A DNA stretch of 59,777 nucleotides from positions 1-59,777 of the forward strand of contig JBBTSX010000011.1 of assembly GCA_038064535.1 (NCBI GenBank). The letters run 5' to 3'. Under the pieces are notes generated by a model. The model had not been told where the DNA came from and searched no databases. It was given only the letters and a program-made list of their open reading frames with translations. Below, in pieces: positions 7,558 through 59,777 of the stretch. Position numbers and translations under genes: made by a program. Numbering within the stretch: the stretch's first letter is position 1; each line of letters begins with the position of its first letter. The stretch is from Patescibacteria group bacterium (GTDB lineage Bacteria; Patescibacteriota; Minisyncoccia; Phycocordibacterales; UBA2100).

Positions 7558-7563
7558 CCTTAA

Positions 7564-7586
7564 TGCGTCAAGTCCGACTTGACGCA
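7564..7586. repeat. REP palindrome, left of RAYT-1
   Basis: TGCGTCAAGT-CCG-ACTTGACGCA perfect 10-bp stem. Confidence 0.9.
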
Positions 7587-7607
7587 AAGACTTGGTATAA
7601 TGCGCAG

Positions 7608-19000: not shown

Positions 19001-19059
19001 CCCCGTGAGATACAAACAATTAACGCCGTTTGCGAAACGAATCCCGTTATCTCACGGGG
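19001..19059. mobile_element. MITE-like element (CCCGT(G)AG TIR family), copy 2, in a promoter region
   Basis: ccccgtgagata...tatctcacgggg flanked by a TATA direct repeat. Confidence 0.8.
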
Positions 19060-39886: not shown

Positions 39887-39959
39887 ATTGCGGCTATCCA
39901 CATGAGAGCGCTTCAGAGCACCTGGGAGCGCATAATGTGGCGCATAATGATGCTATGAA

Positions 39960-40080
39960 TCCCGTTAGAGGCTACGGAAGACGCACTGGATATATGTTGT
40001 TCCAATTCGAGAGAATCTCTGGTCGAGGTTATCGGCGATTAATCGCGTGCGGGAAGCATCGCTTCCTGCCTCTAACGGGA
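39960..40080. mobile_element. MITE-like element (CCCGTTAG TIR family), copy 3, at a start codon
   Basis: tcccgttagagg...cctctaacggga with a TGAA duplication. Confidence 0.88.
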
Positions 40081-40445
40081 TGAAATACGCCTCCATACTC
40101 GGGTGGGGAATTGTAATCTACGCGGTCATGTATCTCACGTGGTCGGGCTTTGTTCTCTACGGATTCTCCGCAGGATTTTTGCCGCGGATTCTCGCCGTCA
40201 TCATCCTCATCGTTACGGCGACCATTGCCGCTCACTCACTCAATTTTTCATCTTGGAAAGATATTCTTCCGCACTCCATCGGATGGGCGGTAATCGTGAT
40301 ACTCCTCGATATGATTTTCTCGGTTCCGTATTCCGGATGGCAGCTCTATGCGGATTGGAATGTGTGGGTCGGGTATGCGCTCGTCGCGGGCGTGCCGCTC
40401 CTCGCGCCGTTCACAAAACGCCGGGTTCACGTCGACACCGAATAA
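40080..40445 (+). CDS. small 4-TM membrane protein
   Basis: hydrophobic ORF; its ATG is formed by the element end plus the TSD. Confidence 0.8.
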   Translation: MKYASILGWGIVIYAVMYLTWSGFVLYGFSAGFLPRILAVIILIVTATIAAHSLNFSSWKDILPHSIGWAVIVILLDMIFSVPYSGWQLYADWNVWVGYALVAGVPLLAPFTKRRVHVDTE

Positions 40446-40446
40446 T

Positions 40447-41604
40447 ATGCCACTCCCACGCGCCCGCGCTCTCCATCGGGTGCTCCTGCGGGTAACGCTC
40501 TCGGCCGCGCAGGTGTATGCGTGGGTATTTATCTTTCAGTTTTTCTACGTCCGGTACGGAAGCATTGCCGAAGGCATCGCGTCTGTCGTCCTCACGTATG
40601 CGCTCGCGCAGGTTGTCACCATATTGCTCACGCCGTGGACGGCACGCGCACTTCGTCACGGCTTCAGGCGGCTCATGGTGTACGCAGTACTCTTGCTTGC
40701 GTCCGCATTTACCGTTCTTTCCGCGTCGTTCGCCGGATATCTCGGCGGATTCGGATGGGGTGTAGGATTGTTTGCCGTGCTCATGGGTGCGTATCGCGCC
40801 TTGTACTGGGTGCCGTACGAAGTGGCGCTCGTGGGGCAGGCGCGAGAGGTACTGCCTTCGCGGACGCGGTACGCGGCCGAAATCCTTGTCGCCTTCATGC
40901 CTGTTGTTGCGGGACTCCTTCTCACATACGGCCCCGTCTCGCCGATAGTGCTTTTATCGCTCGCGGCGGTTCTTTCGGTCGTCAGCATTCTGCCGCTCTC
41001 CGGAATGCGGGATGTGCACGAGGGCTTCGTTTGGAATTATCGCCAGACATTTCATGAACTCTTTTCGCACTCGCGGCGGCGCATGACGCTCGAAGCCGTC
41101 ATGCACGGCATCGAAGGCGCGGCGCTTCTCCTCTTGTGGCCGCTCGTGGTATTCATACTTCTCGATTGGTCATATCCGATGCTGGGCATCGTTCTTTCCG
41201 TGACGTATCTTTTCGGGCTTTTCATCCGGAGCTTATTCCATACTCCGCTTTCACGCGCGAGCTCGTCGACCCTCGCGCTCCTCGCGGCTTCGGCGTGGAT
41301 TATGCGACTCACCGTGGGCGGCGCCGTCGGCGTGATATTGGTGGACACATACTTTTATATCGGCTCGCGTCCGCAGCAGCGGGGGATTGACATGGGCACA
41401 TACGAGCAGTCGGCCGACAACACCACATTCGTCGACGAGCACACGGCACTCAAGGAGATGGGAATCGCACTCGGCAGGCTGCTGGTGTGTTTGCTGGTAG
41501 TCATGCTGATTGCCGTCATGTCGGTTCCGCTGGCCTTTATGATCGTGTTTCTCTGTGCCGCAGGGGCCGCCGCGTACTCTATCTATCTCGGCCGTTCTGT
41601 ATAA
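40447..41604 (+). CDS. MFS-like multi-pass membrane protein
   Basis: 10-12 TM segments. Confidence 0.75.
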   Translation: MPLPRARALHRVLLRVTLSAAQVYAWVFIFQFFYVRYGSIAEGIASVVLTYALAQVVTILLTPWTARALRHGFRRLMVYAVLLLASAFTVLSASFAGYLGGFGWGVGLFAVLMGAYRALYWVPYEVALVGQAREVLPSRTRYAAEILVAFMPVVAGLLLTYGPVSPIVLLSLAAVLSVVSILPLSGMRDVHEGFVWNYRQTFHELFSHSRRRMTLEAVMHGIEGAALLLLWPLVVFILLDWSYPMLGIVLSVTYLFGLFIRSLFHTPLSRASSSTLALLAASAWIMRLTVGGAVGVILVDTYFYIGSRPQQRGIDMGTYEQSADNTTFVDEHTALKEMGIALGRLLVCLLVVMLIAVMSVPLAFMIVFLCAAGAAAYSIYLGRSV

Positions 41605-41622
41605 AATAAGGTAAACCTTTTT

Positions 41623-41680
41623 GGCTCCTCGGCTCGGAAACAAAAGATACGCTCTTTAGTTTCTCTCGCTCTACGTTGCC
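41623..41680. repeat. GCTCG-GAA[stem]TTC-NCTCG structured repeat, copy 3
   Basis: ctcctcggctcggaa...ttctctcgctctacgt; flanks nearly identical to copy 1 but a different stem. Confidence 0.78.
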
Positions 41681-41725
41681 AATAAATACGAAACCGCGGG
41701 GTACGGACGCTACAAGTCCCCGCGG

Positions 41726-42076
41726 TCATAAGAACGTCGGCTCTTCAAGAGCCCTTTGTGTTTTTGTTGCTTCTTTGACGGCCCGCTTAAGGGCACGTGC
41801 GCGGTTGCCTTTAATGGTGCCGAACGCCAATTTCTTTGCCTCTATCCTGTCCCACCTGGTCAATTCCTTAAGAGGCCGGAGCGGGTCAAGATTTGGCGGC
41901 TGTGGCATCGGGCGGTCATCAATGGCATTGCCATGGAATTTCTCCCACAGCAGCGCATCTTCGAGCGGGTAATCCCATACGAACGCAATGCTCCATCCCT
42001 TGCAGGATATGACACATTCGTTCGGTGGGATAACTCGCGCAACCTTCGGTTGGCCTTTGTCGGAGCTTTTCATCAA
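41726..42076 (-). CDS. hypothetical orphan protein
   Basis: 4-nt overlap with the upstream ORF (translational coupling); hairpin downstream. Confidence 0.6.
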   Translation of the reverse strand: MMKSSDKGQPKVARVIPPNECVISCKGWSIAFVWDYPLEDALLWEKFHGNAIDDRPMPQPPNLDPLRPLKELTRWDRIEAKKLAFGTIKGNRARALKRAVKEATKTQRALEEPTFL

Positions 42077-42279
42077 GCGCTCCTGCGGTTGGTACGCTCT
42101 TCATCCCGCTTGTTACGGGCGAACTGTGTACCAACTTCACGCATGAGACGCTTATGATCACCTCGATGGGTGATACCGACTCCGCGAATCGCTTTGCTTA
42201 TGGCGTCGGCCTCGTTGGCCGCGTTGCCGTCGGCAAGCTTCTTTGCGGCATTTCTAGCGAGCTCTTGTATGTCAGCCAT
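42073..42279 (-). CDS. small hypothetical protein
   Basis: GAGGA SD before MADIQELARN; helical. Confidence 0.65.
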   Translation of the reverse strand: MADIQELARNAAKKLADGNAANEADAISKAIRGVGITHRGDHKRLMREVGTQFARNKRDEERTNRRSA

Positions 42280-42383
42280 TTGGTCCTCGTGTACTGAAAG
42301 ACGGGGACGCAACGCAACAAACACAACAATTTGTACTGCCGTGAATTATATCACGACAACAAGATTTGTCTAGTGTCAGGAGG

Positions 42384-42836
42384 TCAAGAAAACAAGCCCT
42401 GAATCACGGCTTTGACGTCTCCGCCGTCCGCACGACCGGCGAATTCTTTTATTACCGCACCCATGAGTTTGCCCGCGCCAGCAGCATCGGTGACACCGAG
42501 CTCGGCTTTTTTTGCCAGTGCGACTTTTTCAATCTCTTCGCGGCTTGCCGTCTGCGGCAGGTATGCTTTCAGTACTTCGAGTTCTTTCGACTCTTTTTCC
42601 GCGAGTTCCGGCCGGTTCCCCTTAGTGAATTGTTCGATAGAGTCTTGCCGTTGTTTTGCAAGGCGCTTGAGAACCGTCACCGCCTCAGGGTCGGCGAGTT
42701 CTTCGGTGGGCTTGCGGCCCTTGGCCACGAGCTCATTCGTAAACGCGGTCATGGCGCCGCGAAGCGTATTGACCTTGAGCATGTCGCGCGCCTTCATGGC
42801 GGTCGTCATATCGGTTTTTATCTGTTGAGTGAGCAT
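42384..42836 (-). CDS. GatB/YqeY domain protein
   Basis: AMKARD, KQRQDSIEQF..GNR.ELAEKE..E...L..YLP. Confidence 0.93.
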   Translation of the reverse strand: MLTQQIKTDMTTAMKARDMLKVNTLRGAMTAFTNELVAKGRKPTEELADPEAVTVLKRLAKQRQDSIEQFTKGNRPELAEKESKELEVLKAYLPQTASREEIEKVALAKKAELGVTDAAGAGKLMGAVIKEFAGRADGGDVKAVIQGLFS

Positions 42837-42858
42837 ATGGTCGAATTATATCAAATAA

Positions 42859-43119
42859 TCAGCCGCCGGAGGATACCGGCGGCTGTTCCGCTGAGCGGAG
42901 GAATACTGGAGCTCTGCACCCGCCGATAACTATCGCACTTATGGGCTTGTTCATCTTAAGCATCGTACCGTTCGCGACCGCCATCAACTTATCGATTTCG
43001 CGAGGGGCGGCATCCAGGCAATCTTGTGCGGTGCGGAATATTGCGAAATGCTGGCCGCCCTCGAATGTCGTGCCGCCATACATGACAGTAATTATAAGCG
43101 TCAGTTTCAAAACGAACAT
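42859..43119 (-). CDS. small hypothetical exported protein
   Basis: GGGAGG SD; hydrophobic N-terminus, two Cys. Confidence 0.6.
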   Translation of the reverse strand: MFVLKLTLIITVMYGGTTFEGGQHFAIFRTAQDCLDAAPREIDKLMAVANGTMLKMNKPISAIVIGGCRAPVFLRSAEQPPVSSGG

Positions 43120-43190
43120 GATTCGTTCCTCCCATCGACAAGCCTACGCCCTGCGGGACAGCGCGTCAAAGGGTGGTAAAATGCCAGTCT

Positions 43191-44264
43191 ATGGAATGGC
43201 TTGTAGTCGGACTTCTCCTCGCGATTCTCGGTGCCCTTGTGTATCTCCTGTGGGCACCCAGACAGCCGCAAGAAGGTCAGGGAATGGTGCTTTTGCAGCA
43301 GCGGATACAGGAGCTTGAGCGGAGCATGGATTCCAAGCTCGGCGAGGGGACGACACGGATGTTTGAGTCCATGAAAGCGCAGTTCGGTGAATCGCAGCGT
43401 CTGGCGAGCGACATCCGCGACCTTGTGGCGAAGCAACTCACCGAGGTGCGCGTCGAGCAGACCAAGACCAATGAATCGACGACTCGCTTCATGGTCATTG
43501 CCGAACAGCTCGCGAATCTCGAAAAGGTGCTCAAGCATCAGAAACAACGGGGAAATCTCGGCGAAGCGTCGCTCGAACTCATTCTCTCCAATATCCTGCC
43601 GCCGGGGACGTACAAAATGCAGTATGAATTTCCGGGGGGTGAGACGGTGGACGCCGTCATCGAGACGAAGGAGGGCGTGATACCGATAGACGCAAAATTC
43701 TCACTCGACAACTATCAGCGCCTCGTAAATGCGGTAGACGACACACAGCGCGCGGAGCTTGAGAAGCAATTCAAGAACGACCTCAAGACGCGTATCGACG
43801 AGACCTCCAAATACGTGCGCCCCAAGGACGGGACACTTCCGTTTGCGTTCATGTACATCCCCGCCGAAGCGATTTACTACGACCTGCTCATCAACGAAGT
43901 CGGCTCGGTCAAGGTGAACACGCGCAATCTCATCGACTATGCATACAACGAGAAAAAAGTCATCATCGTGAGCCCGACGACCTTCGCCGCGTACCTGCAA
44001 TCCGTGCTCTATGGATTTAAGGCGTTCAAGATAGAAGAGACGGCCAAAGACATTGCCAAGAATGTCGAGGCGCTCGGTCGGCACCTTAATGCGTATCAGG
44101 ACTACTACAAAAAGCTCGGCAATTCACTCTCGACGACCGTCAATCATTTCAATGCGGGTTCCAAAGAACTCGGCAAGATAGACAAGGATGTGCTGCGCAT
44201 TACAGGAGAATCTGCCGAGCTCGAGTCGCCGCTTATCGAAAAGCCGGTGACACTCGAGGAATAA
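43191..44264 (+). CDS. rmuC: DNA recombination protein RmuC
   Basis: N-terminal TM, coiled coil, RGNLGE..LE, IDAKFSL, MYIPAEAIY, VSPTT. Confidence 0.93.
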   Translation: MEWLVVGLLLAILGALVYLLWAPRQPQEGQGMVLLQQRIQELERSMDSKLGEGTTRMFESMKAQFGESQRLASDIRDLVAKQLTEVRVEQTKTNESTTRFMVIAEQLANLEKVLKHQKQRGNLGEASLELILSNILPPGTYKMQYEFPGGETVDAVIETKEGVIPIDAKFSLDNYQRLVNAVDDTQRAELEKQFKNDLKTRIDETSKYVRPKDGTLPFAFMYIPAEAIYYDLLINEVGSVKVNTRNLIDYAYNEKKVIIVSPTTFAAYLQSVLYGFKAFKIEETAKDIAKNVEALGRHLNAYQDYYKKLGNSLSTTVNHFNAGSKELGKIDKDVLRITGESAELESPLIEKPVTLEE

Positions 44265-44294
44265 AGTGCTGACCCCGTGATGCGTATCATGGGG

Positions 44295-44540
44295 TCAATC
44301 GAGGTCGTCGCCCTCGTGGGTCGGTTTCCAGCCGATAAATACGGCCCCGAAGAAAGATGTAATTGCGCAAATGAACTTCATTGCATCCCGTTCATGCTCC
44401 GATAGGTCAGACATTCCGAACACAACCACCACATATGAGACTAGGCCAAGCAGGAAAACGGTCAAACCCATCCACAGTGCAATTCGGGCACTGATTTTGT
44501 CGTCATCCGTCGGGCATCGTTCGGTCGGATCGCGGTCCAT
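44295..44540 (-). CDS. small 2-TM orphan protein
   Basis: GGGAGGT SD; two TM segments. Confidence 0.6.
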   Translation of the reverse strand: MDRDPTERCPTDDDKISARIALWMGLTVFLLGLVSYVVVVFGMSDLSEHERDAMKFICAITSFFGAVFIGWKPTHEGDDLD

Positions 44541-44694
44541 GCATACCTCCCGCTATTGAACGGACACACGGGGCACTAACAGTCATCCTCGTCCCGCACG
44601 TGGCATGTGTCAATCCGGGGAGGGTGATAAAAAGGTCAAGCACTTGTTGCACGACCTGTGAGTATGGGTTATATTCGCACGGCTCATATACCCG

Positions 44695-44742
44695 GCGCTC
44701 GCTCGGAAGCACATACAAGCATTTGCTTCCCTCGGCTCGCTG
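44695..44742. repeat. GCTCG-GAA[stem]TTC-NCTCG structured repeat, copy 4
   Basis: gctcggaagca...tgcttccctcg upstream of rplU. Confidence 0.65.
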
Positions 44743-44766
44743 GGTTATAGTTGCGACTCAAATCGT

Positions 44767-45087
44767 ATGGCCAAGATAGCAATCATCGAAACGGGCGGAA
44801 AACAGTACGTCGTCACGCAGGACAGCGTTTTGGATATTGAAAAACTAAAGGGTACCGACAAGGCGGGCGCAAAAATCACATTCGACAAGGTGCTTCTCAC
44901 TGATGATGGCGCGAAGACGGTCGTGGGCGCGCCGTACATCAAGGGCGCCGAGGTCGCCGCTGAGCTTGTGGAAAACGGCCGCGCCGACAAAGTGACCGTC
45001 ATCCGCTATCGCCAAAAGAGCCGCTATTTCAAGAAAAAGGGTCACCGCCAGCCGTACGCCACCGTGCGTATCACTGCGCTTCCGTAA
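44767..45087 (+). CDS. rplU: 50S ribosomal protein L21
   Basis: AIIETGGKQY, KKKGHRQPY. Confidence 0.97.
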   Translation: MAKIAIIETGGKQYVVTQDSVLDIEKLKGTDKAGAKITFDKVLLTDDGAKTVVGAPYIKGAEVAAELVENGRADKVTVIRYRQKSRYFKKKGHRQPYATVRITALP

Positions 45088-45105
45088 GCTCCAAGTATAA
45101 AAACT

Positions 45106-45132
45106 AGCGGCCCGCGTCAGCGGGCCGCTTCA
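45106..45132. terminator. hairpin terminator
   Basis: AGCGGCCCGC-gtca-GCGGGCCGCT. Confidence 0.7.
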
Positions 45133-45323
45133 GTTTCAACAGTCTCATCGTGTTCTCCGCTCTGTGCGGGCTTTCGCTTTTTCGCTCTAAAGCGTGTACA
45201 GCAGAAAAGTGACTTACGTGCGCCCGCTTTTGTCACGAACGCGTTCGGCGACTGTATTCTCGCAAGAATGCCGTGCTCCTTTTCTTTCCGCTTACAGTCG
45301 GCGCAAAGAGGTGCGTCTCTCAT
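45117..45323 (-). CDS. small hypothetical protein with CxxC
   Basis: GGGGGA SD-like sequence; LCADC. Confidence 0.4.
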   Translation of the reverse strand: MRDAPLCADCKRKEKEHGILARIQSPNAFVTKAGARKSLFCCTRFRAKKRKPAQSGEHDETVETEAAR

Positions 45324-45425
45324 GGGTCATCCCCCAAATTCTGCGGCCTTCATCCTACGACTTTGGCGACGGGAGTCCAGCATGGTCAGTGGGAATATCA
45401 AAAGGCCGCCCACCGGGCGGCCTTT

Positions 45426-45785
45426 TCAGTTTTCTGCTCCCTGTCCGTAGCAACGGACTTGTATGATCCTGCCTTTTTCATCTGTAGTTTGGAACACGCG
45501 GCCATAATCGAATCGCTGGTATCGTGGTTTTCCATCGCGGTTAACGAACAGATTGATGTACAGGCCGTTATCGTTGCACGACATCCTAACTGATGTCCCG
45601 GAATCGACCACTAAGCCCCCCATGTGTTCTCCGTTACGGAGACGAAATGTGAAATACGGTTCAGGACCAAGGTCAGTCGGCATCAGCAAGATGACCGAGC
45701 AGACCATGATCGCGATAACGACCGGCCTTGCGATCAGTGTCAATGCTACCTCCCAAGAAAATTTGCTCTTTACAAGGTACGACAA
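45426..45785 (-). CDS. hypothetical membrane-anchored protein
   Basis: TM segment; terminator at 45401-45432 directly downstream. Confidence 0.55.
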   Translation of the reverse strand: MSYLVKSKFSWEVALTLIARPVVIAIMVCSVILLMPTDLGPEPYFTFRLRNGEHMGGLVVDSGTSVRMSCNDNGLYINLFVNRDGKPRYQRFDYGRVFQTTDEKGRIIQVRCYGQGAEN

Positions 45786-45804
45786 GTTGGAACCGATGTC
45801 AACT

Positions 45805-46428
45805 TTATCGACGAGAGTCTAGTGCGCTTTTGATGGTCTCGGGGTCGGCGTATTCGAGCTCACTTCCGGTCGAGAGGCCGCGGCCAAGCGCTGTCACTTT
45901 GATATCCGGACTATGTGCAACGATGTCTTCCCGGATACGCACGGCTGTCGCGTCGCCCTCGGGATTGGCTGGGAAGGCAAAAATAATCTCATTGAATTCC
46001 TTATATCGACTTCGTAAGTCGATAATGTGTGCGAGTAACTGCTTGACGCGGAGGCCGCTTGTCTTTTCCGACGCGAGGGAAATGGTGCCGCCGAGTACAA
46101 AATATTGCCCGCGGAATGTGCCACTGCGTTCGAGTGCGAGCAAGTCGGCGTCGTTCGCAACGACGGCAAGTTGTGTCCTGTCGCGCTCGGGATTGGCACA
46201 AATCGAACAAATGTATTTAGCGGCAGCCTTCGCCGAGGCTCCGGCATGCCAAAGCATGCACTCGGGGCACTGGTGCACTGCGCTACCCAGACTCTGTATC
46301 GCATCCACAAATTCGCGTCGTGCCGACGGTGTGTTTCGCAAAAGAAATTGCACAAACCGCTGTGCCTGCCTCGGCCCGATGCCGGGGAAGCGCTCAAAAA
46401 GTCTCGCCAGTCGCTCAATGGTATCCAT
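45805..46428 (-). CDS. recR: recombination mediator RecR
   Basis: FPGIGPRQAQR HhH, C4 zinc finger, TOPRIM (ANPEGDAT), ELEYAD. Confidence 0.95.
   Translation of the reverse strand: MDTIERLARLFERFPGIGPRQAQRFVQFLLRNTPSARREFVDAIQSLGSAVHQCPECMLWHAGASAKAAAKYICSICANPERDRTQLAVVANDADLLALERSGTFRGQYFVLGGTISLASEKTSGLRVKQLLAHIIDLRSRYKEFNEIIFAFPANPEGDATAVRIREDIVAHSPDIKVTALGRGLSTGSELEYADPETIKSALDSRR
46004..46024. repeat. palindrome within recR (IDLRSRY)
   Basis: TATCGACTT-CGT-AAGTCGATA. Confidence 0.6.
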
Positions 46429-46453
46429 AAAAGAAAGTATACCGCATGTATCT

Positions 46454-46482
46454 AAATCCAAGAGGCGTCACCTCTTGGATTT
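46454..46482. repeat. REP palindrome, left of RAYT-2
   Basis: AAATCCAAGAGG-CGTCA-CCTCTTGGATTT. Confidence 0.92.
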
Positions 46483-46498
46483 ATGGTAATATGGCGGG

Positions 46499-47194
46499 AT
46501 GGGGTATCGACGGGTGCCGTTCGCCTGTGAGGAGTGGTATCACTGCTATTCTCGCGGCATCGATAAGCGCGTCGTGTTTGAGGACGACGCGGACGCCCAG
46601 CGATTCGTTGAATTGCTCTACCTGGCAAACGATAACAAACCCATTCAGCGCGAGAATTTCTACCACTTAAAACATAGTGACATCCTTCGAATGCCCCGTA
46701 ATCATCAGATTGTTTCCATTGGAGCATACAGTCTGATGAAAAATCACTACCACCTTCTCATTCAAGAAATAGAAGAAGGTGGAATAACAAAATTCATGCA
46801 GAAAGTCGGTACTGGATATAGCATGTACTTCAACAAAAGGCATAATCGCGTCGGCAATGTGTTTGTGAAGCCGTTCCGCTCCAAGCACGTATCAACGGAT
46901 AGGTATCTTTATCGTGTCGCGCAGTACATCCATTTAAATGCGGCAGAAATATTCGAGAAAGGATGGAAGCACGGTAGAGTTTCAAACATTGCCGCGCTGC
47001 AACAAAAGCTCACTCAATACCCATTCTCAAGTTTTCCGGATTACGCAAGTGATTCTTTGCGTCCTGAACGAAGTATTTTGGATGAATCCGCGAGAACGAT
47101 TTTGGCGGATCGTTTGCCGGAGCTTTCTGCCGTGCTTATCGAAATGCGGGACTACTACCTTGACCTTGAGCGGGAGTTTAAATCCAAGAGGTGA
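46499..47194 (+). mobile_element. REP-associated tyrosine transposase (RAYT / Y1 HUH family), copy 2
   Basis: YHCYSRG, YSLMKNHYHLL HUH motif, YIHLN, YPFSS. Confidence 0.92.
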
Positions 47195-47228
47195 CGCCTC
47201 TTGGATTAGAGGTGACGCCTCTTGGATT
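47181..47228. repeat. inverted REP plus tandem 21-nt partial copy, right of RAYT-2
   Basis: aatccaagaggtgacgcctcttggatt followed by agaggtgacgcctcttggatt; supplies the TGA stop. Confidence 0.92.
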
Positions 47229-47279
47229 ACAGAAAAGTGAGCGGCCGGCACTGCGCAGAACGCGGTGCCGGCCGTTTCG

Positions 47280-47627
47280 CTACTTTTGCTTGTCGCGGAA
47301 TGTAACGACGTAGCCTTCGGTTCTTCCACCGGTGCCAAGGAACACCGACGAATGAAATGGTGCAACACCGGCCACCTCGAGCGATGGATGCTCCGCAAGA
47401 TACATTCCAAGTGCGCGGTCAAACGTCTGTCCTGTACAGGGCAAATGCAAGCTCCACACGGCAGGTCCGCTCGGAATGCATTGCCTTACCGCAAAGTCAG
47501 GGTCGGTATGGTCGATGAAAGCCATCATGGCGACTGTGGCGAAAAGGACAACAGGGAAAACCCTGCCGACAAGTATTCCGCTCCAGTCCCTGCGTCCGTC
47601 AGCGAATTTCAACGTCCTGAACATCAC
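47280..47627 (-). CDS. hypothetical membrane-anchored orphan protein
   Basis: AGGAGG SD; one TM; GC hairpin downstream. Confidence 0.6.
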   Translation of the reverse strand: MMFRTLKFADGRRDWSGILVGRVFPVVLFATVAMMAFIDHTDPDFAVRQCIPSGPAVWSLHLPCTGQTFDRALGMYLAEHPSLEVAGVAPFHSSVFLGTGGRTEGYVVTFRDKQK

Positions 47628-47679
47628 ATCCTCCTGCGGCTGATGTTGTATCTGTAGGGTAGCAGAAGAGACATGATAC

Positions 47680-49074
47680 TCAAAACGGAGCGCCGTCGCC
47701 CTCCACGTGCGCCTCCGTCATCACATCGCCGAAGTCGCTCTTCTCCACGGAGCGGAAAGTGGTTTTCGATTCGTCGAACAGAAGGTCGACTTTGCCGATA
47801 GGGCCGTTGCGGTGCTTTTCGATAAGAATCTCGGCGACGTTGGTTTTCTCGGCGCCGGTGTCGGCGTTCATTTTGTCTTCGCGGTGGATAAACATCACCA
47901 CGTCGGCATCCTGCTCGATGGAGCCCGAATCGCGCAGGTCGGACAGGCGGGGCCGGCCGCGGCGGGTCTCAATGGCGCGGGAAAGCTGAGAGAGAGCCAA
48001 GACCGGTACTTTGAGTTCGCGGGCCATCGATTTGAGCGAGCGCGATATCTCGGTAATTTGTTGCACGAGGTTGTCGTTGCCGCGGCTCGTGCCCGGCGTG
48101 ATGAGCTGGAGGTAGTCCACAATGAGGAGTCCGAGGTCTTTTTCCATCTTGAGACGCCGCGCGACGGAGCGCATGGCGAGTACAGTAGTTCCCGGCTTGT
48201 CGTCGATATAAATGGGCGCCTCGCTGAGTTGCGCGATGCCTTCCTGCAAGCGGTCGTACTCGTCGTCTTTGGAAATTTTGCCGGTACGCAAGCGCCACGA
48301 ATCCACACCCGCCTGCGCCGCAAGCATACGGTCTACAAGTTGTTCTGAAGCCATTTCGAGCGAGAAAATACCGACGGCAGTTTTGTGTTTGACTGCAGTT
48401 TGACGGGCGATGTCGAGCGCGAGCGCGGTCTTGCCCATCGAGGGACGCGCCGCGAGAATGATGAGGTCGGATTTTTGGAGACCGGAGAGCATGTTGTCGA
48501 GCTGGGGAAAGCCGGTCGGTACTCCGCGCAAAGCGCCTTTGTGTTTTTGCAATAATTCGAGCCGTTCCCACGCGCCTGCAAGCTCCTCTTTGATGGCGCT
48601 GAAGCTCTGAAGCATCGGGGAATTGGTGACTTGGAAAACTGCGGACTGCGCGTCGTCGAGCACCTGCTCGATGTCGCGGTCTTCCTGAAACCCGAGCTCG
48701 CCGATTTTCGCCGCCGCCTCGATGAGACTGCGGAGTACGAATTTTGTCTGGACGCTCTGTGCGTAGTGGCGCGCCGAGCCGGGGGAGGCGGCGGCACCGG
48801 CGACTTCGGATAGATATGCGACGCCTCCGATTGCGGTCAGCTCTTTGCGCTCTTTGAGTTTGCCGGAGACGGTGACGACATCGATGGGCTCGCCCTTGGT
48901 ATGCAGGCTGAGCATGGCGTCGAATATGGTGCGGTGTTTGCCGGCATAAAAAGAGTCAACGCCGACGACGTCGACGATTTCGTACATTGCTCCGGGGGAA
49001 AGAAGCAGTGCGCCGAGAAGCGCCTTTTCCATTTCAATATCTTGCGGCGGCACGCGAGTCGCTTGGGCAATCAT
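47680..49074 (-). CDS. dnaB: replicative DNA helicase
   Basis: AARPSMGKT, FSLEM, IVDYLQL, LSQLSR, DLRDSGSIEQDAD, KHRNGP. Confidence 0.98.
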   Translation of the reverse strand: MIAQATRVPPQDIEMEKALLGALLLSPGAMYEIVDVVGVDSFYAGKHRTIFDAMLSLHTKGEPIDVVTVSGKLKERKELTAIGGVAYLSEVAGAAASPGSARHYAQSVQTKFVLRSLIEAAAKIGELGFQEDRDIEQVLDDAQSAVFQVTNSPMLQSFSAIKEELAGAWERLELLQKHKGALRGVPTGFPQLDNMLSGLQKSDLIILAARPSMGKTALALDIARQTAVKHKTAVGIFSLEMASEQLVDRMLAAQAGVDSWRLRTGKISKDDEYDRLQEGIAQLSEAPIYIDDKPGTTVLAMRSVARRLKMEKDLGLLIVDYLQLITPGTSRGNDNLVQQITEISRSLKSMARELKVPVLALSQLSRAIETRRGRPRLSDLRDSGSIEQDADVVMFIHREDKMNADTGAEKTNVAEILIEKHRNGPIGKVDLLFDESKTTFRSVEKSDFGDVMTEAHVEGDGAPF

Positions 49075-49239
49075 CTGGCGATTCTAGCACGGTGAGATTT
49101 TTCGAATTCACGGCGAAGTTGCAAGATATGGGAGTTGCCTGTGGACAGGGGGTGGATTGGGCGGTCTTGGGGTTCATTGACATAAGTAGGGGCTCTAACG
49201 TCGTATCAAACGCCCAGTTAGCCAAGGTATAATTTCTTC

Positions 49240-49929
49240 ATGCAACTAAAGATTCTTTCTTGGAATATTTGGTATGACGGGCATTTTGATGAGATTTCAC
49301 GATTTCTTGCATCTTTCGACGCAGATATCCTTGGACTGCAGGAAGTAGTGCCAGACGACCCTACAAGGGATACAATCGGCTTCCTCAAAGGGCTGGGTTA
49401 CCAGCATGTAATTGCTCCGGTTCTGACGATAAAAAAAGACGGAAGAACCATGAGTAACGCGATTTTCAGCAAGTACCCAATCGTAAGCTCAGAGATATAT
49501 ACCTTGTCGGACACCGACAGTCGCAATGCGTTGCGGGCAGATATAAAAGTTGGAGAAACAATACTGCATGTGTTCAGTACCCACCTCCTACACACGCACC
49601 AACAATCGTCAGATACTCAAGAACTTCAAGCAAAAAATCTTGTCGAAGCACTTGCTCCAGACCATCTTATGGTTATGGGAGACTTTAACGCAACTCCCAG
49701 TAGTGCAGTTATACAGAAGATGAGAAAAGTCTTGGTGGATACGCATAGCGCATCAGTACCCACGTTAAATGCAAATCTATTTGACTGTCGTATTTGCGAC
49801 CCGCAGGCAATTCCTACTACCCGCTTGGACTACATTTTCACCAGCAAGGATATAAAAACACACTCATTCAAGGTTCACGATGCGGCCGGCTCCGACCATC
49901 TGGCACTTTCAGTAATCGCCGAGATATAA
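49240..49929 (+). CDS. endonuclease/exonuclease/phosphatase family protein
   Basis: SWNI, LQEV, THL, GDFN, LDYIF, SDH. Confidence 0.93.
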   Translation: MQLKILSWNIWYDGHFDEISRFLASFDADILGLQEVVPDDPTRDTIGFLKGLGYQHVIAPVLTIKKDGRTMSNAIFSKYPIVSSEIYTLSDTDSRNALRADIKVGETILHVFSTHLLHTHQQSSDTQELQAKNLVEALAPDHLMVMGDFNATPSSAVIQKMRKVLVDTHSASVPTLNANLFDCRICDPQAIPTTRLDYIFTSKDIKTHSFKVHDAAGSDHLALSVIAEI

Positions 49930-50223
49930 TTCTAAAGAGCAAAAAAGTAAAGAGCAAGGGTAGTCCTTGCCACCATATTCCCATTTGTAAGCTATCGTCA
50001 CCAATAGGGAATATGCAACTTGGGAGCTAAACTCCGAAGTCGAAAGGTGGCTTAAAAACCGCAAGAAATACGCATACACTAATTCTGCGCGACCGCGTAC
50101 ATTAAGTGTATGTGAGAAAAGCAGTGGATTCGTACAAGAGCTTGACGCGGGGCGCCGTATTTGTTACAACAAAGCCACGGCATTCCAAATAGTCAAATTG
50201 GCTATAGAAATCGCCCATATACC

Positions 50224-51246
50224 ATGCTTTCATTCTCGGTCAAAAACGTCACAAAAGAGCTCCTTTCGGAGCTTCCTGAGCGCTCTCGCCGCGTGCTTAT
50301 TGATCGTTTCGGTCTTTCCGGCAAAGGTGAGTCCCGTACCCTCGACGCCATCGGGCAGGAGTACGGCATCACCCGCGAGCGCATCCGCCAGATAGAAAAT
50401 CACGGTCTTTCGACCGTGCGCGATTCCGACGCGTACGAAACGCACGCGCCCACTCTCGAAGACCTCAAGCGTGCGCTCAATGCTCTCGGCGGTGTACTCG
50501 CCGAAGAGACTGTGCTCCGCGAAATCGCCAAGAACGAGGGCGACCACAACCACATCGTCTTTTTGTTCACCGTCGGGCATCATTTCGATTTCCGCCGCGA
50601 AGACGCCGATTTCAAGACGCGTTGGCACATTGACGAACAACTCGCTGAACAGGTGGAGCAGGCGCTTTCTGCGCTCTATGAATCACTAGAAACAAACCGT
50701 CTTACACCGGAAGATGAATTTTTGCAGTTGTTCGCAAAGCACCTCAAACAACAGGGAGTGAAGAACCGTCCCGACGACGTCATGACGCGCTGGCTCCTCA
50801 TTTCGAAGCGCGTCGGCAAAAATCCGCTCGGCGAATGGGGCCGGCAGGAGTCTCCGCATGTACGCATCAAGAACACGCGCGATTTCGCCTACCTCACGCT
50901 CAAGCGCCACGGCAGCCCGATGCACTTCACCGAGGTCGCCAAAGGTATCGAAAAACTTTTCGGCCGCGAGACGCATCCCGCGACGACCCACAACGAACTC
51001 ATCAAGGACAATCGCTTCGTGCTTGTCGGACGCGGCCTGTACGCGCTCAAGGAGTGGGGCTATGAGCCGGGCGTCGTGCGCGAGGTCATCAAAGGGATTA
51101 TCGAGCGTGAAGGACCGCTCTCTCGCGAGGACGTCATCGAGCGCGTGAAGCGCGAGCGCTACGTCAAAGACGCGACCATCTCGGTCAATCTTCAGAATAG
51201 TATGTTTACACGCCTTTCCGACGGTCGCTATTCGCTGACAAAATAA
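50224..51246 (+). CDS. sigma70 region 4-like HTH plus HARE-HTH (RNAP delta-like) domain protein
   Basis: RTLDAIGQEYGITRERIRQIE; PMHFTEVA...HNELIKDNRFVLVGRGLYALKEWG. Confidence 0.8.
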   Translation: MLSFSVKNVTKELLSELPERSRRVLIDRFGLSGKGESRTLDAIGQEYGITRERIRQIENHGLSTVRDSDAYETHAPTLEDLKRALNALGGVLAEETVLREIAKNEGDHNHIVFLFTVGHHFDFRREDADFKTRWHIDEQLAEQVEQALSALYESLETNRLTPEDEFLQLFAKHLKQQGVKNRPDDVMTRWLLISKRVGKNPLGEWGRQESPHVRIKNTRDFAYLTLKRHGSPMHFTEVAKGIEKLFGRETHPATTHNELIKDNRFVLVGRGLYALKEWGYEPGVVREVIKGIIEREGPLSREDVIERVKRERYVKDATISVNLQNSMFTRLSDGRYSLTK

Positions 51247-51268
51247 ACTCCACAGAACACCAGTTCTC

Positions 51269-51297
51269 CACGAACGCCCCATGATGGGGCGTTCGTG
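51269..51297. terminator. hairpin terminator
   Basis: CACGAACGCCCC-atgat-GGGGCGTTCGTG. Confidence 0.75.
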
Positions 51298-51310
51298 TTA
51301 AAATATCGTC

Positions 51311-52729
51311 ATGGCGCACGGCGGACACGGACCATTCCGGCACTTTCTAGGCGGACTGTTCGACATTGAATACTGGGGCGAGTGGGGTATTTCGCGCGCA
51401 CTTTTTTTAGGCATTATTTTTGCCGGCCTCTACTTTATCCTCGGTAATTTCATTCCCAATCTCCCGCTCTTCACGTTCAATTGGCTTGTCGCGACGGCAC
51501 CGATATGGGTTCCTATCGGACTCGTCATCGGTGCCTGGAAGGCCTGGGTCACCTACATTCAATCGCTCTATATTTCCGGCCGCCAGCCGGTACTGCTCGA
51601 GATGAAGATACCGCGCGAGGTTGCCCGCTCACCCCGCGCGATGGAGCTTGCGCTTACGAGCCTCAATCTCTCTTCGGGCGAGACGACCTTCCTCCACCGT
51701 GCATGGAGGGGACAGGTGCGTCCGTTCTTTTCTTTGGAAATAGTGAGCTTCGGAGGCGACATTCATTTTTACATTTGGTGTTGGAAACCCTACAAGGACA
51801 TCATGGAAATAATGATGTATTCGCAGTACCCCGAGATTGAAATCGTCGAAGTCGAAGACTATGCGACGAAATTCCAGTACGATCCGGAAAAACACATGGC
51901 ATGGGGCGTCGAGTGGCCCCTCATGACATATATGGACATAGGCCAGATGGATTTCAGAATCAATGCATACCAGCCGCGTACATACATTGATTTCGAATTG
52001 GACAAAGACCCGAAAGAGGAGTTCAAAATCGACCCTCTTTCCAATATTCTGGAATTTATGAGCAGTATCAAGCCCAACGAGCAACTCTGGATACAAATCG
52101 TACTGAGAAAATCCGGTAAGCGATTCATACTCAATCCGCTCGGCCTCCCCGACGAAGACGGCCTGTGGAAAAATATGGTGGAAAACGAAGTCAACAAACT
52201 GCGAGCCGAGGCCGCCATCATTCCGGCGGATACCCTCAAGGAAGTTCTTGCGGAGCACGGCGAAGAGGAGGACAAGCACGTGTCACCGCGCCCATCATGG
52301 AAGCAGCAGGAAATGATGAAATCGATGGAGCGTCACCTCGGCAAGTACCCGTTCCAAGTCGGTATGCGCGGTATTTACTGGACCGAGGGTGAGTTGCGCG
52401 GTCCGATTTACACGGGATTTCGTTGGATATGGCGTCCGTTCGGCAATCCGCAGTATGGGACGCACCTGCGGCCGAAGAAATGGCATTGCGACTTCGACTA
52501 CCCGTGGCAGGACGTCCACGACTTGCGTTGGATAAACCAGACGTATCGCGTGCACGACGCGTACCGCCGGCGCTCGTTCTTTAATTCACCGTGGATATTG
52601 CCGACCAACGTGCTGACCAACGAAACGATAGCTTCTCTGTGGCATCCGCCGAGTCGTGCCACCGCCACGCCGGGTATTCAGCGTATGGCCGCGACCAAGG
52701 CCGAGCCGCCTGCGAACCTCCCGAAATAG
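51311..52729 (+). CDS. conserved hypothetical membrane-anchored protein
   Basis: N-terminal TMs; LLEMKIPRE, FSLEIVS, SQYPEIEI, LWHPP, EPPANLP. Confidence 0.85.
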   Translation: MAHGGHGPFRHFLGGLFDIEYWGEWGISRALFLGIIFAGLYFILGNFIPNLPLFTFNWLVATAPIWVPIGLVIGAWKAWVTYIQSLYISGRQPVLLEMKIPREVARSPRAMELALTSLNLSSGETTFLHRAWRGQVRPFFSLEIVSFGGDIHFYIWCWKPYKDIMEIMMYSQYPEIEIVEVEDYATKFQYDPEKHMAWGVEWPLMTYMDIGQMDFRINAYQPRTYIDFELDKDPKEEFKIDPLSNILEFMSSIKPNEQLWIQIVLRKSGKRFILNPLGLPDEDGLWKNMVENEVNKLRAEAAIIPADTLKEVLAEHGEEEDKHVSPRPSWKQQEMMKSMERHLGKYPFQVGMRGIYWTEGELRGPIYTGFRWIWRPFGNPQYGTHLRPKKWHCDFDYPWQDVHDLRWINQTYRVHDAYRRRSFFNSPWILPTNVLTNETIASLWHPPSRATATPGIQRMAATKAEPPANLPK

Positions 52730-52732
52730 TCC

Positions 52733-53761
52733 ATGGATTCACTCAAGGCCGCACTGGAGCAGTTTTTTGCCGCACTCGACGGCGTACAGCTACGCCTTTC
52801 GGAGCGGTGGCGCCTGCACGCCAATCGCCGCACCATCATAGTTCTCGTTATACTCGGGACATTGTCAACGTATGCGTGGGTCGCATTGATACAGGCTCCC
52901 GATAATTTTCCGATAGACAAGCTGGTCTCTGTGCCGCAGGGGGAAACACTGAGCCAAATCGCGCAGACGCTGTACGACGACGGTGTCATACGTTCGCCGT
53001 TTGCGTTCAGAGTGTTGATGACGCTTTTCGGCACCACGCGCACCGCGCAGGCGGGCGATTACCTGTTCAAAGAGCCGCGCGAACTCTTTTCTATCGCGCG
53101 TGCGATGTCGGTCGGCGCGTTCGGGCTCGAGCCGGCGAGGATTCGCGTCCCCGAGGGGGCGACGGTGAAAGAGATGGCGGCGATTTTCAGCGTTCACTTG
53201 GAGCGCTTCAACAAAGAGAACTTTCTCGCGCAGGCGCAACCGCAGGAGGGGTACCTCTTTCCCGACACGTATTTCTTTCTTCCCAACGCCGACGAAGGAA
53301 CGGTGATACAAACACTCCGCCAGAATTTCGACTCCAAAATCACATCGATTGCGCCGCTGATTGCGAGCTCGACGCGCAGTGTGAGCGACATTGTCGTTAT
53401 GGCATCCATCCTCGAGCGCGAGGCGTACAATACAGCCGACCGCAAGATGATTTCCGGCGTGTTGTGGAACCGTATCAGGAAGGGAATGCCGTTGCAGGTC
53501 GACGTGACATTCGCCTACACACACGGCAAGGGCACGTTCCAAATCACGATGAAGGACCTTGTCACGCCCTCGGCGTACAACACATACATCAACAAAGGTC
53601 TTCCACCGACGCCGATAGGGAACCCGTCGCTCGATTCGCTTGTCGCGGCGGCCGTCCCGACGAAGAACGATTACCTGTATTTTCTCGCTGACCGGCGCGG
53701 CGTGACGCATTTCTGCAAGAATTACGCGTGCCAGCTCGCCAACAAAGCGCGGTATTTCTAA
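52733..53761 (+). CDS. mltG: endolytic transglycosylase MltG (YceG)
   Basis: EGYLFPDTY, MASILERE, YNTY..KGLPPTPIGNP, YLYF. Confidence 0.95.
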   Translation: MDSLKAALEQFFAALDGVQLRLSERWRLHANRRTIIVLVILGTLSTYAWVALIQAPDNFPIDKLVSVPQGETLSQIAQTLYDDGVIRSPFAFRVLMTLFGTTRTAQAGDYLFKEPRELFSIARAMSVGAFGLEPARIRVPEGATVKEMAAIFSVHLERFNKENFLAQAQPQEGYLFPDTYFFLPNADEGTVIQTLRQNFDSKITSIAPLIASSTRSVSDIVVMASILEREAYNTADRKMISGVLWNRIRKGMPLQVDVTFAYTHGKGTFQITMKDLVTPSAYNTYINKGLPPTPIGNPSLDSLVAAAVPTKNDYLYFLADRRGVTHFCKNYACQLANKARYF

Positions 53762-53779
53762 ACTTGATATAGTAGTGCG

Positions 53780-54904
53780 ATGGCACATACGGTTTTTGTC
53801 GGACTCTCCGGGGGTGTAGATAGCGCGGTGAGCGCCGCGCTTCTCAAAGAGCAGGGGCACAAGGTGGTGGGCGTATTCATAAAGATTTGGCAACCGGAAT
53901 TTATCGAGTGCACGTGGCAGAGAGACCGGCTCGATGCGATGCGCGTCGCCGCGGCGCTTGGCATTCCGTTCAAGGAAATTGATTTGTCCGAAGAGTACAA
54001 AAACGAAGTCGTCACAAAAATGATTTCATCGTATGAAGCCGGAGAGACGCCGAATCCCGACGTATTGTGCAACCGCAGTATCAAATTCGGCGCTTTTTCG
54101 AAATGGGCGCGCGCGGAGGGCGCCGACGTTGTCGCGACGGGGCATTATGCGCAAATCAAGAAAGGTGAGTACGGCCCCGAGCTGTGGCGCGGAGCGGATG
54201 CGTCAAAAGACCAGTCCTACTTTTTGTACCAACTCAGTCAGAGTGACCTTTCGCGGGCGGCGTTCCCCGTCGGCGCAATGACAAAAAAACAAGTGCGCGC
54301 GTATGCAAAAGCGCATTCACTCCCCGTCGCGCAGAAACCCGACAGTCAGGGGCTGTGTTTTGTCGGCGACGTCAGCATGCGCGATTTCCTGAAGCGTTTT
54401 ATCACAGTTGCCGACGGGAGGGTGACCGACAAGAAGGGCCACATTGTCGGCGTACACGAAGGCGCCGCGCTCTACACTATCGGACAGCGGCACGGGTTTA
54501 CCATCACCAAAAAGCAGTTGGCGAAGACGCCGCACTATGTCACCGGTATTGATACCAAAAACAACATCGTGATAGTGTCGGCAAACCGCTCCGATGCGGC
54601 GCGCGCGAGCATCCATGTGCCGGACATGCATTGGATATCGGGTGCCGCCCCGTCGTTCCTCACTGGACTTGCCGTGCAGACGCGCTACCGCGAGACGCCG
54701 CTTGCCATCAAGCTGCGCAGTGAAGCTAAGCGTGCCTATATCGACTTTAGCGAGCCTCACGTCGTCGCCCCCGGTCAATCAGCCGTTGTGTATGACGGCG
54801 GCCGCTGTCTCGGCGGCGGCATCATCGCAAAAGACGCCGCTCCCGTGGTCGCTTCGACAAAGACGCAAGAAGTCAGGAAAATTGAGGTGACGGGCCGGAG
54901 TTGA
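53780..54904 (+). CDS. mnmA: tRNA 2-thiouridine synthase
   Basis: SGGVDS, TPNPDVLCN, ATGHYA, KDQSYFL, DSQGLCF, PGQ. Confidence 0.97.
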   Translation: MAHTVFVGLSGGVDSAVSAALLKEQGHKVVGVFIKIWQPEFIECTWQRDRLDAMRVAAALGIPFKEIDLSEEYKNEVVTKMISSYEAGETPNPDVLCNRSIKFGAFSKWARAEGADVVATGHYAQIKKGEYGPELWRGADASKDQSYFLYQLSQSDLSRAAFPVGAMTKKQVRAYAKAHSLPVAQKPDSQGLCFVGDVSMRDFLKRFITVADGRVTDKKGHIVGVHEGAALYTIGQRHGFTITKKQLAKTPHYVTGIDTKNNIVIVSANRSDAARASIHVPDMHWISGAAPSFLTGLAVQTRYRETPLAIKLRSEAKRAYIDFSEPHVVAPGQSAVVYDGGRCLGGGIIAKDAAPVVASTKTQEVRKIEVTGRS

Positions 54905-54970
54905 TATCCGCAGTCGGAGTGCGGGGAGTCTCTTGTGAGCCCGCAGTCGGGGTACAATGTGCGTAATGAA

Positions 54971-55090
54971 TCCCGTTAGAGACTGCGGAAGACGGAGTCA
55001 TGTTTTTTTGATGATACAGAGAGTGTCTGTGGTCGGATTATCAGCTCATAGCCGGGCGGGAAGCGTAACCGCTTCCTGTCTCTAACGGGA
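54971..55090. mobile_element. MITE-like element (CCCGTTAG TIR family), copy 4, at a start codon
   Basis: tcccgttagaga...tctctaacggga with a TGAA duplication; internally homologous to copy 3. Confidence 0.88.
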
Positions 55091-55497
55091 TGAAAGAAGC
55101 GCTCGTGCGCCTCGTGTGGTTCTTTATCATTGCGTGCGCGGTTTCGTACACGGTATTTCTCGTTGCGGGAAGCGCTATCCGCGCGCAAGCAATCGATGAG
55201 AGCCGTATTGTCCTCATCCGCGACTCTCTCAAGCCCGGCGTGCACTATCTCTCGGGTATCATCATGGCGCCTTCTACTTGTGCGCAGATATCGGAGCGCA
55301 CTACACAACTTTCGACAACGACATACCACCTGATTTTTACGAGCTGGGAGGAGCCGTCGGTGGCCTGCATACGGGAAGATACGCCTCGGTCGTTTCGTGT
55401 GGTCGTGTTCGCGCCCTCGGCGGGCATAGAATTTATCGGCTCGCTCGACGATACTCCGCTCCGGCTCGCGGTGATTCCTGTCATTCAACGCAATTGA
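55090..55497 (+). CDS. hypothetical exported protein
   Basis: N-terminal TM; its ATG is formed by the element end plus the TSD. Confidence 0.75.
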   Translation: MKEALVRLVWFFIIACAVSYTVFLVAGSAIRAQAIDESRIVLIRDSLKPGVHYLSGIIMAPSTCAQISERTTQLSTTTYHLIFTSWEEPSVACIREDTPRSFRVVVFAPSAGIEFIGSLDDTPLRLAVIPVIQRN

Positions 55498-59714: not shown

Positions 59715-59777
59715 GTCCTACCCCGAAGTAGCCAGTAATAAAAGGGCACCAAGAATTTCAGACAGTTTTTGATAATT

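Follow-up and report, generated by a model that had tools for sequence, protein, structure and literature searches.

The window analysed here, a DNA stretch of 59,777 nucleotides from a Patescibacteria group bacterium (contig JBBTSX010000011.1), is one contig of 19 in a genome of 905 kb with 55% G+C. It carries four copies of a short non-coding element that resembles a MITE (a miniature transposable element with inverted repeats), and in copies 3 and 4 the element lies inside the start codon of a gene and rebuilds that codon with its own last base. An earlier reading made from the letters alone (the sequence-only reading) had listed these four elements, each with a terminal inverted repeat and a flanking 4-bp direct repeat, and all four were confirmed. 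At all four places G001, which is the nearest relative in the genome collection (MnmA 90% identical), has an empty site with a single ATGAA, TATA or TGCG-equivalent.

Copy 3 (39960..40080, forward strand) is 121 nt long with T...A termini, and copy 4 (54971..55090, forward strand) is 120 nt long with the same termini and the same polarity. The layout of both is ATGAA, then T-CCCGTTAGAG...CTCTAACGGG-A, then TGAA. The two had been proposed to be diverged homologues, and an alignment that included about 30 nt of flank on each side gave a mean column identity of 81%, in accordance with that proposal. Each copy forms one long hairpin, of -54.4 kcal/mol (z -5.0) for copy 3 and -54.7 kcal/mol (z -5.4) for copy 4, and 0 of 200 shuffled sequences was as stable.

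The old start codon of copy 3, ATG plus AA, occupies 39955..39959 on the forward strand, and the target duplication TGAA, read from the sequence, lies at 39956-39959 and 40081-40084. The promoter-side end consists of the 13-mer, TAC and GGAAG, and the gene-side end of GCTTCC, T and the 13-mer; the final A of the element opens the rebuilt ATG. At this ATG begins a predicted membrane protein of 121 aa (40080..40445, forward strand) with no Pfam family, whose orthologue in G001 has a 90% identical DNA flank. The element has no counterpart at the orthologous site of G001, where the two flanks overlap by exactly 4 nt and a single ATGAA stands. A -10-like box, CATAAT (39943..39948, forward strand), lies 6 nt 5' of the old ATG, and both the box and its spacing are conserved at the empty site. 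The insertion created an upstream open reading frame (uORF) of 42 codons from the old ATG (39955..40083, forward strand), the stop codon TGA of which overlaps the rebuilt ATG as ATGA. Among DNA contigs from sequencing runs no joint that skips the whole element was present at copy 3, which is no argument against polymorphism. Among RNA runs, only two contained a small share of the stretch.

The arrangement at copy 4 is similar. The old ATG plus AA lies at 54966..54970 (forward strand), and the TGAA duplication, again read from the sequence, at 54967-54970 and 55091-55094. G001 reads ...TACAATAGTCTTAATGAAAGAAGCG... at this place, without the element. The -10-like box TACAAT (54953..54958, forward strand) is 7 nt 5' of the old ATG and is also found at the empty site of G001, so that the original ATG does follow closely on such a box in both copies, as the sequence-only reading had it. 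The uORF (54966..55085, forward strand) comprises 39 codons from the old ATG and ends at the TAA within CTCTAACGGG, 7 nt 5' of the rebuilt ATG, from which a 135-aa protein with no Pfam family is encoded (55090..55497, forward strand).

Copy 1 (4983..5053, reverse strand) is 71 nt long with C...G termini and is bounded on both sides by TGCG on the gene strand (CGCA on the forward strand), thereby rebuilding GTG. Together with its duplication it adds 75 nt, which leaves the old ATG (5056-5058) in the same frame. Its site is empty in G001 (net -4), and there the codon is GTC. Since this codon is GTC and an in-frame ATG stands 7 codons upstream in both genomes, copy 1 may have entered in frame, as 75 nt, at codon 8 and not at the true start. 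The claim that an ATG was the target in three of the four copies therefore holds for copies 3 and 4 and is doubtful for copy 1. Copy 2 (19001..19059, 59 nt, no strand assigned) belongs to the CCCCGTGAG...CTCACGGGG subfamily; it is intergenic, with TATA on both sides and no start codon, and G001 has an exact empty site (4-nt flank overlap).

Census, start-codon position and mobility

Copies were sought by pairing the end motifs across all contigs, which gave 58 paired elements. Two degenerate copies from a profile search, both at ATGAA and one followed 3' by a short gene that we take to encode ribosomal protein L36, bring the family to at least 60 copies in the genome. The ends read YCCCGTTAGA...TCTAACGGGR, and most copies measure 110-121 nt, within an overall range of 50-196 nt. 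By pairing with each other the two ends, YCCCGTTAGARRY...RYYTCTAACGGGR, form a single long hairpin, at least 12 of 14 terminal bases being complementary in 58 of 58 copies. The outermost bases covary (T...A in 29 copies, C...G in 27, other in 2). An exact 4-bp duplication flanks 45 of the 58; it is 5 bp (TGGAA) in three and 3 bp in one, and its sequence varies with the target while its length is fixed, usually at 4 bp. The repeats noticed around the window copies thus recur in further ones. No copy has coding capacity for a transposase, the sole open reading frames (ORFs) being chance uORFs whose frame differs between copies. Nested insertions occur with duplications of their own, and unpaired half-sites are degenerate or mini copies. 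In structure the family agrees with a MITE in every respect except a known parent.

The position of the copies relative to genes was then expressed as a start class, in which the terminal purine and the duplicated TG give an ATG or GTG that opens at least 80 codons. This class holds 38 of the 58 copies, compared to 2.4% of random positions (P ~3e-47), which bears out the enrichment at start codons that had been predicted. The insertion point is N|TGNN, between the first and second bases of the start codon, and the last base of the element rebuilds ATG in T...A copies and GTG in C...G copies, as had been supposed. Of the 29 T...A copies, 26 fall in the class, and a 27th stands at ATGAA with a short ORF. 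The old start codon is GTG in two copies and TTG in one (targets G|TG and T|TG), therefore the object struck is the start codon and not the word ATG. Intergenic ATGs other than start codons are not used as targets. The old start codon is retained in 37 of the 38 copies, a mismatch between the two copies of the duplication occurs in 3 of 38, and a whole start codon is duplicated in 0 of 58. Outside the start class the duplications vary (CGTG, TAAA, TATA, CGGA, CCCG, CTTG, TTGA), so the enzyme does not require TG; the base just 5' of the duplication tends to be a purine, mostly G. Four to five copies lie in frame within ORFs.

The two ends are distinguishable, and the orientation of the element could therefore be read. 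On the promoter side the 13-mer is followed by 3 nt (usually YRC) and GGNNG, and on the gene side, read inward, by a single A and GGNNGC. Among the 32 long start-class copies, 29 carry the end with the 3-nt spacer on the promoter side, 2 have a variant form, 1 is uninformative and none is reversed. A strand-aware comparison of all copies against all gave 211 pairs in the same orientation, 20 in opposite orientation and 1 ambiguous. The 13-mer and the second 5-bp block are fully Watson-Crick paired in 69 canonical copies. The stems are nearly all Watson-Crick and covary between subfamilies (GGAAG/CTTCC, GGACG/CGTCC, GGTCG/CGACC, GGGAG/CTCCC). This pairing points to a constraint on the DNA, be it that the ends must be symmetrical or that a hairpin or cruciform occurs as an intermediate.

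The mobility of the family was examined by comparison with nearly the whole of the G001 genome. A site was taken as comparable where both flanks map to one G001 contig, which held for 47 of the 58. Exactly empty sites, with a flank overlap equal to the length of the duplication, number 25 in G001, the 5-bp TGGAA and 3-bp cases included. Another 11 are empty by inspection, with the single-copy site visible. The sequence-only reading had proposed a search for such empty alleles beforehand, and they are abundant. Only 2 segments are filled in both genomes, both with atypical ends, and with the nhmmer profile 42 matches were obtained here and 2 in G001. The copies therefore postdate the separation of the two lineages, and the insertions are recent. 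In the reverse comparison, of the copy on contig C12 of G001, the flanks lie 9 kb apart in this genome.

Some further sequences resemble the element or its ends. Mini elements of about 29-35 nt consist of two ends back to back (C1:13775-13803, C8:49563-49591, C4:30388-30415 and others); some have a 4-bp duplication of their own (CGAG, CGTG), and one is nested within a longer copy. Intergenic hairpins of the form CCCCATTAGA.AGC...GC.TCTAACGGGG, followed by CAGG and with A in place of the G of the element, are present in both genomes (C1:13660-13690, C1:15650-15690, C10:17710-17745, C10:19205-19235 and C14:46290-46320; in G001 C1:79254 and C7:315). They may be old copies or a related motif of the host. 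A 276-nt stretch (C6:14394-14667, equal to G001 C6:28066-28339) has element-like ends with G...C termini and no duplication, occupies the same place in both genomes and gave no Rfam match. The word ACCTG or ACTTG stands on the promoter side, and no repeat matches it on that of the gene, at C7:55645, C12:1492 and C14:6574 and at loci L155 and L160 of other genomes; its recurrence in unrelated genomes may mean that the left end has a variant or that there is a second type of target.

Target genes and spread across Patescibacteria

The signals upstream of genes were analysed by comparing the first starts of 859 conserved ORFs with internal ATGs. The motif TANNNT peaks at a spacer of 6 nt, where it precedes 8.5% of first starts and 0.5% of internal ATGs. 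It is the only upstream signal, and no enrichment of Shine-Dalgarno-like words was found upstream of the 859 ORFs. At the target sites themselves, a strict TANNNT at spacer 5-8 is present in 20 of 38 (14 of them at spacer 6), and about 27 have one within 10 nt by eye. The target genes would accordingly be leaderless, with a -10 box about 6 nt upstream and no Shine-Dalgarno signal, and if so the cut would fall at +1/+2 of the transcript. The leaderless context put forward for copies 3 and 4 is in this way supported indirectly. In four groundwater runs, metagenome contigs accumulate at both ends of the element and diverge exactly at the old ATG and just past the rebuilt ATGAA, and their upstream consensus contains a TATAAT-like box.

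A Pfam scan of 20 target proteins matched 15. These include phosphoglycerate kinase (pgk), triosephosphate isomerase (tpiA), FtsK (ftsK), a class II aminoacyl-tRNA synthetase, IF3 (infC), PurE, PurT, a GATase_5 (CobB/CobQ-like) glutamine amidotransferase that we take to be PurQ, ribulose-phosphate epimerase, a PfkB kinase and a response regulator. For many matched targets the region aligned to Pfam starts within residues 2-10 of the ORF read from the rebuilt codon, therefore the rebuilt start is the real N-terminus. As the targets are unrelated to one another and many are essential, expression must survive the insertion. The suggestion that the element acts as a mobile regulatory module found no support: the targets are unrelated housekeeping genes, and the mismatches of the stem, given below, carry no mark of selection on RNA.

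The pattern is present in 17 of 41 related genomes, 11 of 24 within the genus, and also in five other families of the order, where the interiors are A+T-rich and not alignable while the ends and the length are the same. When one copy was taken from each of 10 relatives, 6 rebuild the start of a long ORF and 2 more stand at N|TG with a short open frame. A scan with one genome per species, using a search pattern that required ATG after one end, revealed at least 120 loci. Among the matches listed, nearly all are labelled Patescibacteria (Kaiser-, Nomura-, Wolfe-, Yanofsky-, Taylor-, Jorgensen- and Campbellbacteria, Paceibacterota and others), and a few records are labelled Omnitrophica, Planctomycetia or Proteobacteria. 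The 136 copies among these listed matches, selected as they were by the ATG-requiring pattern, show an exact 4-bp duplication in 98, a retained upstream NTG in 107 and an opening of at least 80 codons in 115, and their polarity is 71 against 6. Members of the family are thus spread across Patescibacteria, where their position at the start codon and their polarity are the same. Three matches in viral contigs were rejected as members, none having complementary ends or a duplication.

In a relative (G016:C3:165442-165549) a tRNA-like sequence lies between two element ends (CCCGTTAGATAAT...ATTATCTAACGGG). The tRNA-Ala of the window (35597-35669) has no element ends at its flanks.

Insertion mechanism and rival explanations

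The explanation that we favour, at a probability of roughly three in four, is a mobile, non-autonomous, MITE-like family that is aimed at start codons, moved by a transposase in trans and tolerated since translation from the old AUG opens the hairpin. An enzyme encoded elsewhere would make 4-bp staggered cuts, and the insertion machinery would be directed, in a fixed orientation, to the promoter complex or the start site of leaderless genes. After insertion the messenger RNA (mRNA) would still start with the old AUG, then pass through two bases of the target into the hairpin's 5' arm, and the rebuilt AUG would be located at the foot of the 3' arm. Ribosomes entering at the old AUG would translate into the 5' arm, which the first six codons cover, open the stem and expose the rebuilt start. 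In many copies they would then stop at the TAA or TGA of the right end, 7 nt before the rebuilt start or overlapping it, and expression of the gene would be kept. The near-complete retention of old start codons would be explained by this role, as translation from the old AUG would be what opens the stem. A tentative extension, rather less likely to be right than wrong, is that the machinery reads the start of leaderless genes itself, for example by docking on the open promoter complex and cutting at +1/+2, which would make the element a self-spreading 5' leader of the whole phylum that hosts could co-opt to control translation. On this view the element would be designed to do no harm at such a place, as its last base restores the start codon and its right end supplies stop codons in two frames just before it.

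Several observations weigh against this explanation or parts of it. The uORFs were followed in the 34 copies that have the old start at its canonical place: 12 end at the TAA at -7 (in CTCTAACGGG), 3 at an overlapping ATGA, 4 continue into the gene in frame and 15 terminate sooner, therefore a strict coupling of stop and start is not general. At least five start-class sites have no -10 box at all, and where the spacer is 8-10 nt the cut still falls at N|TG, a finding that agrees with reading of the codon as well as, or better than, with reading of the transcription start. Twenty of the 58 copies lie outside the start class, and one short copy of 83 nt (C10:40444) is reversed. Among stem mismatches on the sense strand, G.U occurs 22 times and A.C 35 times; with no excess of G.U, nothing signals selection on RNA structure. 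To these is added the failure to find a transposase with matching ends, in the genome or in the loci searched, which was the situation already described for the window by the sequence-only reading.

The search for this enzyme was carried out by family and by end sequence. The IS1380/piggyBac elements share the 4-bp (sometimes 5-bp) duplication and ends beginning CC(C), and to our knowledge these families are not known to aim at start codons. Unlike in IS1380, however, no PF13701 (DDE_Tnp_1_4) transposase accompanies the present family: there were 0 matches in this genome and in four copy-rich relatives, and the 3 of 201 genomes of the order that have one do not include the copy-rich G027 and G033. 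A search of five copy-rich genomes for PF01609, PF00665, PF13358, PF13546 and PF05598 yielded no relevant match. PF13843 gave no match in the copy-rich genomes, yet none in the control genomes either, so that this answer is empty. Pairs of terminal inverted repeats in 576 kb of loci enclosed no transposase, and the long pairs enclosed ordinary genes. At least two multicopy insertion sequences are without their interiors in the assembly, and the absence of the enzyme from it is therefore weak evidence.

The borders of the window illustrate these gaps. Positions 1-55 and 59721-59777 carry 55-mers, each of which is common to three other contig ends. The 5' end of the window corresponds to an end of an IS30-like element that is complete in G017 (L128 553-1545), and the 3' end is the end of an element encoding a 393-aa DDE-like protein with no Pfam match (full copy in G072, L114 339-1520). 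The ends of both are unlike those of the family beyond CCCCGT. The IS30-like transposase is found in 6 of the 41 relatives (G001, G006, G009, G017, G021 and G027), all of them carriers of the element, and in 0 of the 24 without it; this protein is a lead only, given that its ends differ and the relatives are not independent. An IS1182-like fragment in G011 has unrelated ends, and a helix-turn-helix protein among the ORFs without a match in G001 is phage-like rather than transposase-like.

The strongest challenge comes from purifying selection. According to this account there is little or no choice of target, and selection alone leaves the copies at start codons because insertions elsewhere in a compact leaderless genome are lost. 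The compactness of the genome, the essential genes among the targets, the four to five copies tolerated in frame inside ORFs, the old starts retained in 37 of 38 copies and the varied duplications outside the start class, from which TG is not needed by the enzyme, are all in line with it. Selection surely removes most insertions in so compact a genome, yet the single phase and the single orientation are not explained by it. Duplication of ATGN or NATG would also preserve both AUGs, but no such copy exists among the 58. The orientation is near-invariant (0 of 32 long copies reversed here, and 71 against 6 elsewhere among the matches listed), though either way round would present the same terminal stem, and the intergenic ATGs that are not starts remain unused. 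Owing to the single phase and orientation, aiming by the insertion machinery is favoured over selection alone, which we regard as unlikely to be the whole cause.

A still less probable account treats the copies as a REPIN-like population moved as single-stranded hairpins by a Y1 (IS200/RAYT-like) HUH transposase. The genome does contain five paralogues of Y1_Tnp (PF01797; IS200/RAYT-like, with the HUH motif), two in the window (7527-8327 and 46499-47194, both forward strand) and three on other contigs (C6:34584-35396, C7:23057-23734 and C5:130168-130824). The two inverted ends with a spacer, and the Watson-Crick, covarying stems, would also fit an importance of hairpin pairing. Transposition of single strands by HUH enzymes, however, is not known to yield a target duplication, whereas the present family has a true 4-bp duplication of variable sequence and single-copy empty sites. 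The REPIN abstracts, as far as available, make no mention of a target site duplication. A RAYT gene would be expected between copies of its own repeat, but each of the five Y1 genes is flanked on both sides by a perfect hairpin of its own that is unrelated to the element (for example, at 46499-47194, one of the CCAAGAGGCGTCACCTCTTGG type). In G001 about 10 Y1 loci coexist with only 2 copies of the element; none of those loci is more than 55% identical, therefore the Y1 genes turn over rapidly.

The remaining account, that the segments are a conserved cis-regulatory leader RNA (a riboswitch or protein-binding leader) belonging to the genes, with the flanking repeats as part of the motif, has very little probability left. 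The sense orientation at mRNA 5' ends, the stable hairpin and the ends conserved across the phylum are what such a leader would show, and in subfamily A an alternative pairing is possible, of GCUUCC with GGAAG (5') or with GGGAAGC (local). The orthologous genes of G001 lack the segments, however, the flanking 4-mers follow the target, the downstream genes are unrelated, G.U pairs are not in excess and the interiors are not alignable between lineages. A leader RNA as the origin of the copies is thereby refuted. Rfam 15 gave only a tRNA at gathering score in the window, and genome-wide no element was matched; a skipping-rope hit (20.2 bits against the 36.7 needed, on the opposite strand, not reproduced genome-wide) was discarded as noise. 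Taken as a whole, the interpretation offered by the sequence-only reading is supported, apart from the regulatory role.

Relation to known systems and meaning

The family resembles several known groups of small repeats. Correia elements (CREE/NEMIS) of Neisseria, ERIC, RUP and BOX are likewise short non-coding hairpins with terminal inverted repeats and a fixed short duplication, in tens of copies. They are 100-150 bp in size, are co-transcribed with their neighbours and, as here, have no transposase of their own. Correia elements duplicate TA and lie at varied distances from genes in both orientations, whereas the present family cuts inside the start codon in one phase and orientation, supplies the first base of the rebuilt codon and extends over a phylum. 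REPIN-RAYT systems, in the descriptions as far as available, also have inverted ends, two in number and about 25 nt each, with some 70 nt of spacer, a diversified, long-lived 'quasispecies' and Y1 genes in the genome; the present family differs in having target duplications, in its sites at start codons and not at 3' ends or extragenic places, and in a copy number that does not track the Y1 genes. Ty3 likewise inserts within a base or two of the transcription start, at sites where RNA polymerase III begins, and would be a eukaryotic analogue of the mechanism if the leaderless reading holds; it is a long terminal repeat (LTR) retroelement guided by transcription factors, whereas here the element is a non-coding bacterial DNA hairpin whose targeting to the start site is inferred. 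We know of no bacterial mobile element that cuts within a start codon and repairs it.

Rickettsia palindromic elements (RPE) are palindromic, mobile and tolerated in expressed genes with the frame preserved (PMC10969869, available portions). The four to five in-frame copies described here are like them. RPE are translated within the protein at internal positions, whereas most copies here occupy the start codon in a frame different from that of the gene, and therefore cannot be part of the protein. A literature search on miniature inverted-repeat elements together with start codons and leaderless genes returned no description of such a family, and one on Patescibacteria or CPR together with MITE, REP or leaderless returned nothing relevant; the family tables of the PMC11602168 survey might list it. 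The available portions of PMC11602168 and PMC10969869 contain no mention of 'start codon' or 'Patescibacteria', and those of PMC3733652 no mention of 'target site' or 'duplication'.

Bacterial mobile elements that choose their sites by the anatomy of genes and not by a DNA word are rare. If the aiming is mechanistic, it would imply that a transposition enzyme is connected, in a way hitherto unknown, with the promoter or start of leaderless genes, and if the start-site reading is true, the family would be a bacterial counterpart of start-site-directed integration such as that of Ty3. In practical terms the element breaks metagenome assemblies at its ends and may mislead gene callers on start positions; it also marks leaderless promoters, and its presence or absence separates close strains. 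The family moreover offers a natural experiment on how far leaderless mRNAs tolerate a hairpin leader of 120 nt, in Patescibacteria, whose initiation of translation is poorly understood.

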